41,553 nt of DNA from a virus. Its lineage: Duplodnaviria > Heunggongvirae > Uroviricota > Caudoviricetes. Below the pieces are notes generated by a model. It worked only from the letters and a program-made list of their open reading frames with translations, did no database searches and was not told where the DNA came from. This document shows, piece by piece, positions 37,521 to 41,553 of this stretch. A program made the position numbers and the translations under genes. How positions within the stretch are numbered: the first letter of the stretch is position 1; the number at the start of each line of letters is the position of its first letter. The stretch lies in the IMG/VR virus record IMGVR_UViG_2534681759_000006. The stretch is one strand, 5' to 3'.

Positions 37521-37560
37521 AACCGTAGCACGTCGTATGCAAGAAGATCGTGCTGCGGTT
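37521..37560. repeat. hairpin repeat copy A (CCGTAGCACG tcgtatgcaagaagat CGTGCTGCGG)
   Basis: Near-identical to copy B at 38540..38580; followed by GGTTTATGCTT so it may also terminate pin. Confidence 0.7.
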
Positions 37561-37580
37561 TATGCTTATCACTTAAAGAC

Positions 37581-38354
37581 TCAAAAATTAGGTGAGTAAC
37601 GGACCGGGGACATAGCTCCTTTTTTTCTTAATTCATCTGGTATTTTTTTTCCAAGATAAAGATTTGCTATTTCAGGTGGGGCTTCTCGACCTTCAAAACC
37701 ATAGCGAGAACTTTGTGTTGCCTCAAAGTCCGGATCCTCGTCCCAGTATTTCATCGTAGGGAAATTTTCACGTGTTGATTTGAGCCATTTATCAGCAATG
37801 AAAACCCCTCGAACGATCCCCCTTACAGTAGCAAGAATGACTTCTGCTTGGCTGGCGCGAGAGACATTAATGCGCCAGCTAAATCGAACCGCATCATAAA
37901 GCTCTGAATCCTTTGCACTTCTGTTAACGGAAATCATTAATGCTTTATGATGAAATGTTATGGTTTCGGGTTGATATGTTGCTATCAACTCTTTGACATG
38001 CGCGGCGCCGAATTCATTGCTGCCAGCACCATTCATGATATTCGTTAACCCAGGGTAGGCATCAATAAGTGCTGCTTCAACTTCGTACGCCGTCTTTTCA
38101 TCAGTCATTCCGTGTCGATGGATGACATGGATAACCTCAAGTCCTGCTAACCTTATTTCTCTAATTTGCTTTAGCTTGTTGCTCAGTAACTCGTCATCAT
38201 CAGTCGCTGCCACTTCACCGCGCATATGGGCAAATACGCGGTTACCTTTGCCTTTCCCTACATAGAAGGTGCTTCCGTCCCTCGGATCAATCAATCGGTA
38301 TACATACCAGCCAAGGTGTTCAATTACTCCAGAAGGAAACTCAGTAATATCCAT
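37581..38354 (-). CDS. GIY-YIG nuclease-domain protein (about 257 aa from MDITEF...) with uncharacterised C-terminal domain
   Basis: UvrC-like GIY-YIG motif WYVYRL...[14 protein letters not shown]; lower GC than the tail genes. Confidence 0.7.
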
Positions 38355-38539
38355 TTTGCAATATCTATGAATTATTTGTGAGACGTATATTAATGAACAT
38401 TGCAAGGGCTCACAACCAGTAGTGTTGAGAAAACCATCGGGGAAATGAGGCTAAGCCTTTGAATTTACATAGTATAAAAAAGATACTTTTCCTCATAATG
38501 TGAATTAATTTTATGTTTCGTTTGATGATTGGACCGGTC

Positions 38540-38580
38540 TCGAAACCCGTAGCCACGTCGTATGCAAGAACGTGCTACGA
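38540..38580. repeat. hairpin repeat copy B (CCGTAGCCACG tcgtatgcaagaa CGTGCTACG)
   Basis: Same orientation and loop sequence as copy A; lies in the GIY-YIG gene's upstream region. Confidence 0.7.
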
Positions 38581-38827
38581 CTGGCTGGTGAACTTCCGAT
38601 AGTGCGAGTATTGAATGATTTCCAACTGTTATCGATTTTGCGTATTTTTTGCATGAGAGGATTTTTACCTCCTCCCACCGATCCTCCATGGCTTTACGCC
38701 AGTGTCTCTGGTCTGCTATGTACCAGAAGCGGAAGTTGTGTCTGTTAGTATGATATTATAATTACACTCGCTTATAATAAGCCCACAATACAGATATAAA
38801 AATATCTCAACGCTTGGGAGTTAACAA

Positions 38828-39739
38828 ATGATTAACTTTACTGAAATTGATAGTGACGGTGAAGCCTGGGAGTCATTTGCCCGTGATTTTCTTGAAGAAC
38901 TTGGCTTTTATATTGAATCCGCGCCAGATAGAGGTGCAGATGGAGGTAAAGATCTTTTAATCACAGAGCAATTGCAAGGTCAGTTAAATAAATATAAATT
39001 TCGTTGGCTTGTTAGCTGTAAACATTATGCAACAAGTAAAAAATCAGTTTCAGAAAAGGATGAGATTAATATACAAGAACGTATTGATGGATTCAATGCC
39101 GACGGATTTATTGGATTTTACTCAACACTGCCAAGTAGTGGTTTAAATTCAAGAATGACGCAATTAAAAGAGAATGGAAAAATAAAGGACTTTCGATTCT
39201 TTGATGGTAAATTAATTGAAAATCACTTAGTCAGAATTGGTTACTCAAAACTACTCCTTAGATACTTTCCTGAGAGCTATAAAAAAATAAAACCCAAGCA
39301 TTTGATTTTTGATAAGTACTTACCTATAAAATGTGATCGTTGTGGAAAGGACTTAATAGAAAACCATCATGAAGAAAATTATGATGGCATTGTGTGCAAT
39401 GCAGAGATCATACACGATGACAAACCAAATGAGGTGATAGCGGTTTATTATGCGTGTAAAGGTGATTGTGATAAGCATTTTGAGGATTATTTTTGGAATG
39501 AATATAAAGCGATTACGAGATGGCAGGATATAAGTGATCTAGCCATCCCATTATTCTATCTCAAATGGATTATGGGGACATTTAATGAACTTGAGTATGG
39601 AAGGAAAACATATACCAAAGAAGCCTTCAATAAAACAAAGGAGATAACATTAGCGCTATCTCAAATTGTTATGAGAGAAATGACAGAAAAAGAAAGAGAA
39701 AGAGTGATGGCTTTGAATTCACTACCTGATTACATATAA
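38828..39739 (+). CDS. Mrr-like PD-(D/E)xK restriction-endonuclease-fold protein with Cys-rich C-terminal domain (303 aa), very AT-rich
   Basis: N-terminal pattern FARDFLEELGF...DRGADGGKDLL...VSCKHY resembles the Mrr catalytic domain; C-terminal CDRCGKD...C...CKGDC. Confidence 0.5.
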   Translation: MINFTEIDSDGEAWESFARDFLEELGFYIESAPDRGADGGKDLLITEQLQGQLNKYKFRWLVSCKHYATSKKSVSEKDEINIQERIDGFNADGFIGFYSTLPSSGLNSRMTQLKENGKIKDFRFFDGKLIENHLVRIGYSKLLLRYFPESYKKIKPKHLIFDKYLPIKCDRCGKDLIENHHEENYDGIVCNAEIIHDDKPNEVIAVYYACKGDCDKHFEDYFWNEYKAITRWQDISDLAIPLFYLKWIMGTFNELEYGRKTYTKEAFNKTKEITLALSQIVMREMTEKERERVMALNSLPDYI

Positions 39740-39910
39740 ATTATATTTACTAACATTTGAACTAGCGCATCTTTGGTGCAGAGACACCACCATCTTGGGG
39801 ACACTGTGAGGCCACTGGCTTCCCAACTTATCGTTATACAGGATAATAAGGTGCTCCAGGGTGGCTATGAACTTGATGTTACGTCTGCGATTTGCTCATA
39901 AGGGACAACC

Positions 39911-39947
39911 ATACTCAAATCTCCCACATTGCAGGAGATTTGAGTAT
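39911..39947. promoter_or_regulatory. perfect 14-bp palindrome ATACTCAAATCTCC-N8-GGAGATTTGAGTAT overlapping the SD and start codon of the recombinase gene
   Basis: Read directly; the right arm contains GGAG and ends in the ATG. Confidence 0.8.
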
Positions 39948-40548
39948 GAACACGTCACCGTGGAACAAAGACCGTATCATCGGCCAAAAAAGACCACTTC
40001 AGATATCTCATATCTGGGGGATCCGAATCCGGCTTGAACTGGAAGGTAAAACGCGCGATTTAGCTCAGTTCGATATGGTCCTGGACAGTAAGCTACGAGG
40101 CTGTGATCTGGTCAAACTCAAAGTATCTGATGTTGCATATGGTAGCTCTGCTTCAAGCAGAGCTACGGTGCTGCAACAGAAAACCGGTAGCCCTGTGCAG
40201 TTTGAGATAACCAAAGGGACAAGAGAAGCTGTTGCTGCATTGATAATGCTTGGCAATTTGCATAGTAAAGACTTCTTGTTTCGGTTTCTGGTCGGAACTA
40301 ATCAGCTCATATCTACCCGGCAATACAACCGAATTTTTCATGGGTGGGTAGAAAAGCTTGGTCTCGAAGATTCGCTTTACAGCACTCATTCCATGAGAAG
40401 AACAAAACCTTACCTGATCTACAAGAAAACCAAGAATCTTCGGGTGATCCAACTTCTGTTGGGCCATAAGAAACTGGAAAGCACAGTCCGTTATCTGGGT
40501 ATTGAAGTAGATGATGTGTTAGAGATCTCTGAATCGATTGAAGTCTAA
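39946..40548 (+). CDS. small tyrosine recombinase, catalytic domain only (about 200 aa; FimB/FimE-like size)
   Basis: Catalytic motifs LRGCDLVKLKVSDV (box I), HSMRRT (H-x-x-R), LLGHKKLESTVRYLG (H..Y); no N-terminal core-binding domain. Confidence 0.7.
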   Translation: MNTSPWNKDRIIGQKRPLQISHIWGIRIRLELEGKTRDLAQFDMVLDSKLRGCDLVKLKVSDVAYGSSASSRATVLQQKTGSPVQFEITKGTREAVAALIMLGNLHSKDFLFRFLVGTNQLISTRQYNRIFHGWVEKLGLEDSLYSTHSMRRTKPYLIYKKTKNLRVIQLLLGHKKLESTVRYLGIEVDDVLEISESIEV

Positions 40549-40585
40549 GGTTGTCAGGGCTGCAACAACAGCCCTGTGCCAGGAG

Positions 40586-40614
40586 TTGACACTGTTAGCA
40601 TCGCGCTATGTTAA
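40586..40614 (+). promoter_or_regulatory. candidate sigma70 promoter (TTGACA, then a TG-containing -10 region) upstream of the last gene
   Basis: Consensus -35 hexamer read in sequence 17 bp upstream of TGTTAA; preceded by hairpin CAGGGCTG caacaa CAGCCCTG. Confidence 0.4.
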
Positions 40615-40680
40615 TCTATGTTGAGCAGTTAAAAATGATAATGTAGTTTATATGGATAATCAGTTTATAGAGTGGGTGAG

Positions 40681-41553
40681 ATGGAACTAGATGAAACACT
40701 TGAAGTTATCAAAAATAATTTTAGTAATAATCAGAAGAAACTATTTAAAAGGATTGAGCCAGCCACTAACCGTCAAGTAGCTATCGGTCTTATTAGTTTA
40801 CAAGGAGTGGAAAAAACATCTCAGGCTGAGATAGAGGTAATTGCCGGCCTCATATCTCAGTTTAGTCCATTGGAAATCGATAGTTTTCAAAATTCACCAC
40901 GACGAATAACTCTGAAAGGTCAATTCCCAAACGGACATATTGTTTATATCGAGCCTCAGTATAAGGTTGGCAATATAAACCCAAAAGCCCAGCCTTGGGC
41001 AATAGACCTTGTCCTTAGACTAAATAGATGGATTGGTCAAGATTTGGTTGAGATTGCTGCTATTGGCATCGAGTATGATGGCCACATAGCTCATTATGTG
41101 GAAAGTAAAATTAAGTCTACTTACAAGCGTGATGCAGTAATAACTAGTAACGAAGGATTTCAATCGATTAGGATCTCACCAGAACAATGGAAATCGTCTA
41201 AAGAGGATCTTAAGAAGGCAATTAAAAAGTATTTTGAACATCACATAAAAAAAATTGAAAAAGTTCAACTAAGCACAATAAACGCCCAAAATTTCAACAA
41301 TTTTATTTATGAAAATGAAAATGAAGTGATATCCACTGTAACTTGCCCTTTATGTAATGGAAAAGGCAGTTTAGCGGGAGAAGATTGTCCGATCTGTAAT
41401 GGAATGGGATCCGTAAAAAGATATATTGCTGCAAAGGTGAATCTTTCTAATTATGAAAAATTCACTTGTCCTGACTGCAGGAATATAAAATTAGATTGCA
41501 GAACCTGCAATGGTGAAGGATCAATTAGCAGAGAAAAAGCATTAGAAATGTAA
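40681..41553 (+). CDS. AT-rich protein with C-terminal DnaJ-type zinc-finger repeats (CxxCxGxG) and a possible PD-(D/E)xK/DUF559-like N-terminal domain
   Basis: C-terminal CPLCNGKGS, CPICNGMGS, CPDC, CRTCNGEGS; N-terminal IDLVL...IEYDGHIAH resembles the DUF559/Vsr-like motif (tentative). Confidence 0.6.
   Translation: MELDETLEVIKNNFSNNQKKLFKRIEPATNRQVAIGLISLQGVEKTSQAEIEVIAGLISQFSPLEIDSFQNSPRRITLKGQFPNGHIVYIEPQYKVGNINPKAQPWAIDLVLRLNRWIGQDLVEIAAIGIEYDGHIAHYVESKIKSTYKRDAVITSNEGFQSIRISPEQWKSSKEDLKKAIKKYFEHHIKKIEKVQLSTINAQNFNNFIYENENEVISTVTCPLCNGKGSLAGEDCPICNGMGSVKRYIAAKVNLSNYEKFTCPDCRNIKLDCRTCNGEGSISREKALEM

Follow-up and report, generated by a model that had tools for sequence, protein, structure and literature searches.

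Known defence-gene hotspots and the present locus

Hotspots of defence genes next to tail-fibre/invertase modules have been published (Rousset 2022, PMC9122126, for the P4 hotspot; bioRxiv 2024.10.15.618418), and small serine recombinases have been linked with defence genes as markers (PMC13552941). A study of P2/P4 repertoires (PMC13586616, September 2026) lists exchange routes to other elements and identifies none of them, and sedentary chromosomal integrons are described as stores of defence cassettes (bioRxiv 2024.07.02.601686). Here we analyse a stretch of 41,553 nucleotides of tailed-phage DNA (IMG/VR record IMGVR_UViG_2534681759_000006; hereafter the window), the last part of which, positions 37521-41553, holds four genes that we call G1 (a GIY-YIG restriction endonuclease), G2 (a protein with an Mrr-fold nuclease domain), G3 (a small tyrosine recombinase) and G4 (a protein with a Vsr-fold nuclease domain and zinc knuckles).

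This region, together with ~350 bp beyond the end of the window, is very probably where an SfIV/SfV-like prophage inserted at thrW has its hypervariable cargo slot, with a cargo that serves defence. Its most likely content is an array of independently acquired single-gene nuclease cassettes that would protect the lysogen from other phages. In our best explanation, to which we give a probability of about 0.6 from the sequence comparisons below, the slot takes up defence cassettes that are bounded by two kinds of short site, A and B, and exchanged through G3. As a defence island the region is a new member of a familiar kind, and G1 is already known; the cassette arrangement may show how defence genes hop between unrelated mobile elements.

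Compared with the P2 Z/fun, P2 tin/old and P4 hotspots, the window is alike in having a fixed slot in a conserved backbone, beside a tail-fibre/invertase module, with diverse single-gene defence content, and its G2 cassette is shared with the Z region of P2-EC67. It differs in being part of an SfV/e14-type prophage at thrW and in having discrete bounding sites and a resident tyrosine recombinase, a combination not described in the hotspot papers that we consulted; our literature searches likewise gave no account of the A and B sites or of a role for the G3 family. With integrons the window shares arrays of mostly single-gene cassettes (promoter-poor or promoter-bearing) delimited by recombination sites, a tyrosine recombinase within the array and defence cargo; the homologues of G4 in Vibrio cassette arrays are a further likeness. 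Unlike IntI, however, G3 has 200 aa and lacks both the N-terminal domain and the IntI-specific insertion. The A and B sites are simple palindromic cores of 24-30 bp, whereas attC sites are folded structures of 57-141 bp, and each cassette has two site types instead of one; moreover, G3 lies between the cassettes in the same orientation as they do, and the cassettes of the window have their own promoters. Against the model NF040815 ('site-specific tyrosine recombinase/integron integrase') G3 scored 46 bits (cut-off 220), which does not place it among the integron integrases.

The pdif modules of Acinetobacter (PMC9771954) are alike in that modules lie between short (~28 bp) tyrosine-recombinase core sites in different replicons. 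The A and B sequences, however, are unrelated to dif/cer, and a dedicated recombinase borne by the element stands in place of the chromosomal XerCD. The consensus bound by XerC/XerD is GGTGCGCATAA-N6-TTATGTTAAAT; on direct reading the A and B sites (GTCCGC…GCGGAC) bear no resemblance to it, and we do not count them as Xer/dif sites. Similar in layout is engineered recombinase-mediated cassette exchange with heterospecific lox or FRT sites, where two sites with identical arms and incompatible spacers surround a cassette; in the window such an arrangement would permit swaps without excision. We know of no natural counterpart of the engineered exchange.

A variable cargo slot in a thrW prophage

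The window begins with proA (1-1254), followed by the tRNA-Thr(CGU) gene thrW (1369-1444) and an integrase gene (1459-2622, minus strand); the remainder is prophage, whose structural genes match those of SfIV, SfI and SfII, serotype-converting phages of Shigella, at 98% DNA identity and those of SfV at 97%. The 4.15 kb from pin to the window end are found at 99.9-100% identity in six complete E. coli genomes, and two more hold 84% of this stretch. In strain APEC 102026, whose island is identical to that of the window (locus L001; window coordinate = L001 + 25399), a 45-nt stretch of the thrW 3' end is repeated perfectly, as attR, at L001 16460-16505, which is 306-351 nt beyond the window end. 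Because this repeat lies beyond G4, all four genes belong to the prophage and lie in the stretch bounded by the tail-fibre invertase and attR. The initial annotation had drawn the island as 37521-41553, but it does not end there: in the identical APEC 102026 locus the B-type site that closes the G4 cassette is 34-57 nt beyond the window, and attR is farther out still.

The conserved left neighbour of the slot is pin (36966-37520, plus strand), a pinE-type serine invertase gene (Pfam Resolvase, E 4e-51, plus HTH_7; annotated as pinE by RefSeq in the identical locus). As first noticed, the GC content drops after pin, from 0.56-0.60 in the tail genes to 0.33-0.47 (0.42 in G1, 0.33 in G2, 0.47 in G3 and 0.34-0.39 in G4), over four consecutive open reading frames with no structural role. 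The first reading of their domains (GIY-YIG, Mrr-like PD-(D/E)xK, catalytic-only tyrosine recombinase and zinc-finger nuclease-like, respectively) was reproduced for each of them, with corrected starts. All four genes are intact and none is a pseudogene, which answers the early concern that they might all be degraded.

Sister prophages at thrW have sequence in common with the window up to 38729-38737 and then carry different genes. E06 has genes for a ComEC/Rec2-like protein, a G3 homologue, a 331-aa protein and a DUF4145 protein; G5 has genes for two hypothetical proteins and IrN for two others, different from those of G5; and QDFD216, without the G1 product CMoRE, has a gene for a 497-aa protein. 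In the sister E. coli prophages generally, pin is common, CMoRE is present or absent, and wholly different genes follow; in the same slot of SfIV we find gtrA, gtrB and gtrIV. As related prophages hold other cargo or gtr genes here, we read the slot as a variable defence slot, and it shows the properties by which prophage cargo or defence hotspots are recognised: conserved flanks, differing content in close relatives and a position inside the att boundaries. The comparison with related thrW prophages marks the slot genes as variable cargo and bears out the cargo slot that had been proposed between the invertase and attR. The parallel drawn with pin and mcrA of e14 is functionally apt, because G1 is a restriction enzyme of type IV whose action depends on modification. 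The proposal of a stacked defence island is likewise supported, by G1 as a characterised restriction enzyme and by G2 and G4 as intact nuclease-fold proteins in promoter-bearing cassettes of their own, with a putative anti-phage role.

A and B sites at the cassette boundaries

The A and B sites are 24-30 bp long and have common arms (GTCCGC…GCGGAC) and distinct 6-bp centres, often with an AAC…GTT extension. The consensus of the A site is GTCCGCTCTGTGCCAGnnGCGGAC, which we parse as GTCCGCTCT-GTGCCA-GAnGCGGAC, and that of the B site is GTCCGCTCCTCGCTCnnnGCGGAC, parsed as GTCCGCTCC-TCGCTC-AnAGCGGAC; this 11-6-11 parse is a direct reading by eye and not the output of a tool.

The first A-type site of the window (GTCTGCTATGTACCAGAAGCGGAA; 38711-38734, plus strand) is the point at which the sister prophages diverge and the G2 cassette starts: homology to E06, G5 and IrN stops at 38729-38737, and homology to P2-EC67 begins at 38711. 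A degenerate B-type site (GTCTGCGATTTGCTCATAAGGGAC; 39883-39906, plus strand) closes the G2 cassette and is at once the left boundary of the G3 unit. At the right edge of this unit, which is also the start of the G4 cassette, lies an A-type site with degenerate arms (…CCCTGTGCCAGGAGTTGAC; 40567-40590, plus strand), where homology to E06 and Providencia stops (40581-40585) and homology to the P1/P7-like metagenomic contig L009 begins (40577). The G3 homology block thus spans 39894-40585 and the G4 block runs from 40577, and with the closing B-type site the array reads A, G2, B, G3, A, G4, B.

Such sites are widespread. With a tolerant pattern, 289 sites were found in 2.5 Mb of fetched loci (0 in shuffles), and IMG/VR contigs with the exact consensus number 69 for A and 81 for B, where ~0.05 are expected by chance. 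Cassettes running from an A to a B site number 67, are 0.5-6.2 kb long and represent 66 protein clusters. Their cargo includes PD-T7-1, PD-T7-5, Shedu SduA (E 4e-234), DarT/DarG, HEC-08, and NucC-like, TIR and SIR2 proteins; non-defence cargo (MFS, LysR, NUDIX and glyoxalase proteins) is found in such cassettes as well. Locus pairs with a conserved left and a variable right flank dominate at A sites (384, with 10 of the reverse kind), and pairs with a conserved right and a variable left flank at B sites (224, with 12 of the reverse kind); about half of the homology change-points lie at most ~13 nt from a site.

In E06, A and B sites are found between each of the cargo genes, and the same sites part genes in unrelated E. 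coli islands, including CP4-type islands beside a YeeP-like GTPase gene and a Rac/Qin-like prophage. Where G3 is absent between cassettes, a double site is observed, consisting of B, an 18-nt spacer (CTTCA…ATATC) and A (L105 9713-9778, L106 5007-5072, and 3810-3875 in both L108 and L110). In strain TW10828 a solo A site is found exactly where other strains hold cargo plus G3. As a separate observation, the spacer of the double site is at the exact place that the G3 unit has in other arrays.

These comparisons support A and B as boundaries that are discrete, conserved, palindromic-armed and recurrent across unrelated mobile elements, and that enclose many known defence systems; it is likely that they are the physical boundaries of exchange. 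Defence genes are swapped rapidly among unrelated mobile elements, and the sites together with a candidate enzyme make the question of how this happens experimentally tractable. They also provide a sequence signature for mining new defence genes, namely anything between an A site and a B site.

A small tyrosine recombinase between the cassettes

G3 (39946-40548, plus strand) encodes a tyrosine recombinase of 200 aa that consists of the catalytic domain only. Its match to Pfam Phage_integrase covers only the catalytic part (profile positions 21-166 of 172, E 2.6e-14, 53.8 bits, cut-off 27.1). The N-terminal core-binding (SAM-like) domain is missing: the matches begin at position 111 of 263 in the XerA model and 127 of 295 in the XerC model, and only ~50 residues precede the catalytic domain. 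In 78 distinct homologues the hexad R51, K79, H148, R151, H174 and Y183 shows at least 97% conservation. The searches gave more than 8000 homologues in gamma-, beta- and alpha-proteobacteria, the best-scoring of which have ~200 aa and 57-96% identity; with so many homologues of a conserved ~200-aa length, G3 is not a remnant. Catalytic-domain-only tyrosine recombinases (~150-200 aa, ~30% identity to G3) are also seen mid-genome in temperate phages of Streptococcus, Listeria and Bacillus, separate from the phage integrase.

A perfect 15-bp hairpin (39910-39948, plus strand; RNA minimum free energy -22.5 kcal/mol) buries the Shine-Dalgarno sequence and the ATG of G3. Folding each sequence separately, we found that 65 of the 75 distinct homologous leaders sequester the Shine-Dalgarno sequence in an equivalent hairpin whose stem sequence differs, and the mean folding energy of the leaders is -13.5 kcal/mol (shuffles: -7.0). 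Directly 3' of G3 is a conserved palindrome with an 8-bp stem (40555-40576, plus strand), the stem sequence of which is clade-specific; no second copy that could form the other edge of an excisable element was found, each locus having one. We considered whether this hairpin with the following GCCA could be the remnant of a tRNA end, and rejected the idea on direct reading (the stem has 8 bp and a T-loop is absent). We read G3 as an intact, translationally throttled recombinase and not as a switch for the neighbouring genes.

We propose that G3, acting in cis or in trans, would recombine A with A and B with B. An A…B cassette could then be swapped between any two site-bearing replicons, and the differing centres of A and B would prevent loss of the cassette by A×B deletion, so that the system would be nature's parallel to the engineered exchange of cassettes between heterospecific lox sites. 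If this heterospecific-site logic is true, it would offer a compact natural tool for cassette exchange. That G3 is the enzyme acting on the A and B sites is a candidate assignment to which we give slightly less than even odds. More tentative still is the general picture of a platform, distinct from integrons and spread across proteobacterial classes, in which a 200-aa tyrosine recombinase without core-binding domain and heterospecific 11-6-11 A/B sites would shuttle single-gene defence cassettes (Shedu, DarTG, PD-T7-1/5, G2, G4) among prophages, P2 hotspots, P1-like phage-plasmids, CP4-type islands, integrative and conjugative elements (ICEs) and plasmids, with the recombinase kept nearly silent by the hairpin at its ribosome-binding site.

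The initial annotation had suggested that the recombinase might control expression. In such an invertible switch, a FimB/FimE-like G3 would flip a promoter segment, or itself like hin, and so turn G2 and/or G4 on and off; G3 does have the size of FimB/FimE (~200 aa) and no arm-binding N-terminal domain, it is flanked by inverted arms, and it lies directly upstream of G4 in the same orientation. We consider this very unlikely. In none of the compared loci did G3 or its neighbours vary in orientation, nor was an invertible segment seen: eight E. coli genomes are collinear over at least 84% of the island, and the loci that share one flank all have G3 in the same orientation. The flanking sites have unlike spacers (TCGCTC and GTGCCA), and the G2 and G4 cassettes each have a promoter region of their own and are found elsewhere without G3. 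Sequence similarity to the invertases is negligible, with 15 bits for PRK09871 (cut-off 222) and 12 bits for PRK09870 (cut-off 221), so that G3 is not assigned to the FimB/FimE family. The evidence points to G3 as a mark of the junctions of cassette exchange rather than as a switch of expression.

G3 also behaves as a precise unit of 717 bp. In joined-flank searches in two E. coli contexts the unit is always there when both flanks are present, and in a further 158 and 31 genomes with one flank only, homology stops at most 2 nt from the unit edges. In enteric loci a B-like sequence is found at about -66 before G3 and an A-like sequence at about +45 after it, and in Pseudomonas-type loci the ends of G3 are near-perfect inverted repeats (15-16 of 16 positions in an ungapped test). 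Such discrete ends would suit an autonomous element similar to an insertion sequence (IS) with a tyrosine recombinase as its 'transposase', which would leave solo A and B sites as its footprints or prefer them as palindromic targets, without mobilising the neighbouring genes; of 5426 complete E. coli genomes 905 carry G3, which occupies many positions and is also seen on plasmids and ICEs, and many G3-bearing loci are at contig ends. On the other side, joined-flank queries for an empty site lacking the 717-bp unit alone found none among 362 and 209 E. coli genomes in the two contexts, only flank swaps, and TW10828 misses cargo and G3 together; the median is one copy per genome, and other genes lie between solo sites that keep to a regular A…B order. 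An autonomous element is therefore improbable in our view, if somewhat less so than a switch.

G3 homologues elsewhere end conserved blocks in Providencia (L010-L013) and in marine ICE-like contigs (L014-L021), the blocks being aldo-keto reductase/GSH peroxidase genes or an ars operon beside traF/traH/traG. Unrelated DNA begins ~37-45 nt past the stop codon of the G3 homologue in these loci, and includes TIR/SEFIR, WYL, mer and class-1-integron-like genes.

Several observations weigh against exchange of cassettes by G3 at A and B sites. The sites of the window are all degenerate, by 2-5 positions. The asymmetry of the breakpoints is dominated by one backbone family for A sites and three for B sites, and among the IMG/VR loci we found no further case of one cassette in two backbones (41 of 41 similar pairs share both flanks). 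In the ungapped inverted-repeat test around G3, loci exceed the shuffled controls only in the tail of the distribution (at least 14 of 16 positions in 11 of 88 loci, versus 0 of 88). As the island is 99.9-100% identical among the eight E. coli genomes with at least 84% of it, the array may be a fossil. The title of the 2004 report on P2-EC67 by Nilsson et al. (Mol Biol Evol 21:1) reportedly invokes site-specific recombination, and inverted repeats are annotated around the P2-EC67 gene in GenBank entry AJ512685; part of the idea of the sites may therefore be old. Finally, a G3 homologue is present, within the fetched stretch, in only two of 147 site-bearing phage contigs. As G3 is so rarely near the sites, it would need to work in trans; otherwise the exchange would fall to another enzyme or to homologous recombination.

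The last of these possibilities deserves separate attention. The A and B sites could be mere portable homology boxes or structural elements at which swaps occur by homologous recombination (of the phage Red/RecT type or by RecA), with G3 as an unrelated hitch-hiking mini-element that is inserted at, or travels with, these junctions. Most site-bearing phage contigs have no G3 nearby, mosaic boundaries in lambdoid phages are classically explained by homologous recombination at short homology, and from the 17-nt repeat around CMoRE (see below) it is evident that events at short repeats take place in this very region without any A or B site. However, the 11-6-11 layout with palindromic arms is typical of tyrosine-recombinase cores and not of arbitrary homology, G3 is bracketed by one site of each kind in enteric loci, with clade-specific versions in Pseudomonas and beta-proteobacteria, and 24-30 bp at 80-90% identity is a poor substrate for RecA. 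We regard homology boxes as the less likely explanation, though the strongest competitor of site-specific exchange.

The nuclease cassettes G2 and G4

G2 (38828-39739, plus strand) is a single-gene cassette with its own promoter; the best promoter-like match of the region is at 38750-38778, upstream of the gene. The protein has a nuclease domain of the Mrr_cat (PD-(D/E)xK) fold at the N-terminus (residues 10-150) and a C-terminal half with four cysteines (C169, C172, C210 and C214) and no Pfam match. These cysteines and D38, D42, E47 and K65 are invariant in 43 sequences. We rejected its assignment to Mrr proper, in which an N-terminal winged helix precedes a C-terminal nuclease, because the nuclease domain of G2 is N-terminal. 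The family is large (>1358 matches), always stand-alone and ~300 aa long, and unusually conserved, with 50-60% identity across phyla. At the DNA level 38711-39898 is 90.5% identical to P2-EC67 'Z-region ORF1, putative lysogenic conversion protein'; the annotated -35, -10 and ribosome-binding site are part of the match, and the P2-EC67 copy is bounded by one A and one B site. G2 is therefore a self-contained cassette that also occupies the P2 Z/fun defence hotspot.

G4 (40681-41553, plus strand; 290 aa), also a single-gene cassette, encodes a protein whose N-terminus is helical in the predicted model (pLDDT 88), which also shows an endonuclease domain similar to Vsr and four CxxC zinc knuckles. 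The conserved acidic and histidine residues expected of a Vsr/DUF559-type fold are present: D112, E134, D136 and H141, as well as eight cysteines (four CxxC pairs), are invariant or nearly so across homologues. The C-terminus scores 28.3 bits with the DnaJ-type CxxCxGxG zinc finger profile (cut-off 32.7). This family is small, with 32 matches in E. coli, Vibrio, Photobacterium and Pseudomonas. In V. parahaemolyticus (L003-L005) the homologue is found among dozens of small genes on the same strand (including LysE, acetyltransferases, glyoxalase, SMI1/KNR4 and HNH/SRA), and from this gene content the arrays look like a chromosomal integron. In P. aeruginosa it adjoins HEPN and BrnT genes, and in L009 it is in the accessory region of the P1/P7-like element. 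The L009 copy is bounded by an A and a B site, and its homology with the G4 cassette starts within the A site and stops where the B site ends (L001 15178-16211 corresponding to L009 7898-8936).

We infer that G2 and G4 are stand-alone DNA-targeting defence nucleases, in which the C-terminal zinc module would be the sensing or DNA-binding part. The pairing of a nuclease with a zinc-module sensor makes both of them good candidates for new single-protein restriction-like systems. Sequence searches of PDB with G2, G3 and G4 were uninformative.

Three results count against a defence role. PADLOC 2.0, the check that had been suggested for the island, assigns G1 to PD-T4-3 and matches G2 and G4 to no system. 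A candidate assignment of G4 to PDC-M01B was rejected, as only the zinc-finger tail is aligned (profile positions 269-362 of 366, E 6e-15) and the A component is absent. In G2 the motif reads V-S-C-K, with S63 at the position usually taken by E/Q in the (E/Q)-x-K of Mrr. G2 and G4 might then be selfish or housekeeping nucleases of the mobile element (homing-type or addiction) or accessory factors of recombination, and cassettes elsewhere do carry the MFS, LysR, NUDIX and glyoxalase cargo mentioned above. Vsr-fold domains are also found in homing endonucleases such as I-Bth0305I. Such non-defence roles seem unlikely: the two genes turn up in settings classically tied to defence (the P2 Z/fun hotspot, arrays like those of integrons, a phage-plasmid's accessory region and the neighbourhood of HEPN/BrnT genes), they adjoin a proven restriction enzyme, and sister cassettes hold many validated defence systems.

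G1 and the CMoRE module

Judging by sequence identity, G1 (37581-38354, minus strand) is the published GIY-YIG type IV restriction endonuclease CMoRE, or PD-T4-3, an already characterised enzyme. PD-T4-3 was reportedly first found by Vassallo et al. in 2022. We place the start of G1 at the ATG at 38354, giving 257 aa in place of the 274-aa open reading frame starting with TTG. The protein matches Pfam LEM-3_GIY-YIG (E 2.4e-14, 54 bits, cut-off 27) and, over positions 1-255 of 256, the PADLOC profile PD-T4-3 (PDLC04031, E 2.7e-140), and ~254 of 258 residues (~98%) are identical to the E. coli O157:H7 enzyme in PDB 9U75 (E 2e-172). The crystallised O157:H7 protein was renamed CMoRE and is a type IV modification-dependent endonuclease acting on 5hmC and glucosyl-hmC DNA (PMC12923530); it protects a natural isolate and K-12 from Tevenvirinae (bioRxiv 2024.12.20.629700). 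Carrying over the published activity of CMoRE (PMC12923530), G1 would cut the hmC/ghmC DNA of T-even phages. In comparison with CMoRE/PD-T4-3 (PDB 9U75 and 9U7U), G1 has the same full-length profile match, GIY-YIG N-terminal domain and modification-sensing C-terminal domain, with no material difference. Its setting is convergent to pin in an SfV-like prophage at thrW, in a module of 1025 bp that is present or absent as a whole.

This module is bracketed by a 17-nt direct repeat, CACGTCGTATGCAAGAA, the copies of which form its left edge (37529-37545, plus strand; inside a hairpin) and its right edge (38554-38570, plus strand; inside a similar hairpin). Strain QDFD216 has a precise empty site, in which the two copies are collapsed to one: a query made of the pin end joined to the sequence after G1 gives a contiguous match of 461 bp. 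The joined-flank query for the absence of CMoRE is covered to at least 80% at one place in 118 genomes. Given the precise empty sites and the bracketing repeat, CMoRE is a module of its own that is either present or absent and makes no use of A and B sites.

Other features of the window and its surroundings

A non-coding element of ~100 bp (38542-38650, plus strand) is 80-92% identical to sequences of HK97, HK106, mEp and many Stx phages, with 85-92% for many lambdoid phages, and its HK97 counterpart lies between tfa and the sib/attP region. A prophage end near 38.6 kb at this HK97-like element, with G2-G4 in a neighbouring island, was considered and is ruled out by the thrW repeat beyond G4; the HK97-like piece is the region downstream of tfa. 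RefSeq labels this element a fragment of a 'capsid protein' pseudogene, apparently an artefact of annotation. In an Rfam scan of the region the sole match was the Shigella chromosomal sRNA CssrB (37498-37557; 24.5 bits, gathering score 76, E 0.055), which is sub-threshold and overlaps the hairpin directly 3' of pin.

At 9006-9113 there are five tandem TCA(A/G)AATCTGAC-like repeats with a spacing of 15 nt, in or adjoining the open reading frame 8703-9644, which look like iterons of the replication origin of the prophage. In APEC 102026 the sequence after attR (L001 16660-25184) contains an integrase remnant, a MarR regulator gene, an IS-disrupted vat autotransporter gene and an integrase fragment, followed by yagU; these elements indicate that the prophage and an older vat island occupy thrW in tandem. 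In the same strain, whose prophage is otherwise identical, the tape-measure gene is split by IS1203 (L001 608-3753), and its counterpart in the window, the open reading frame 27762-29669, is intact.

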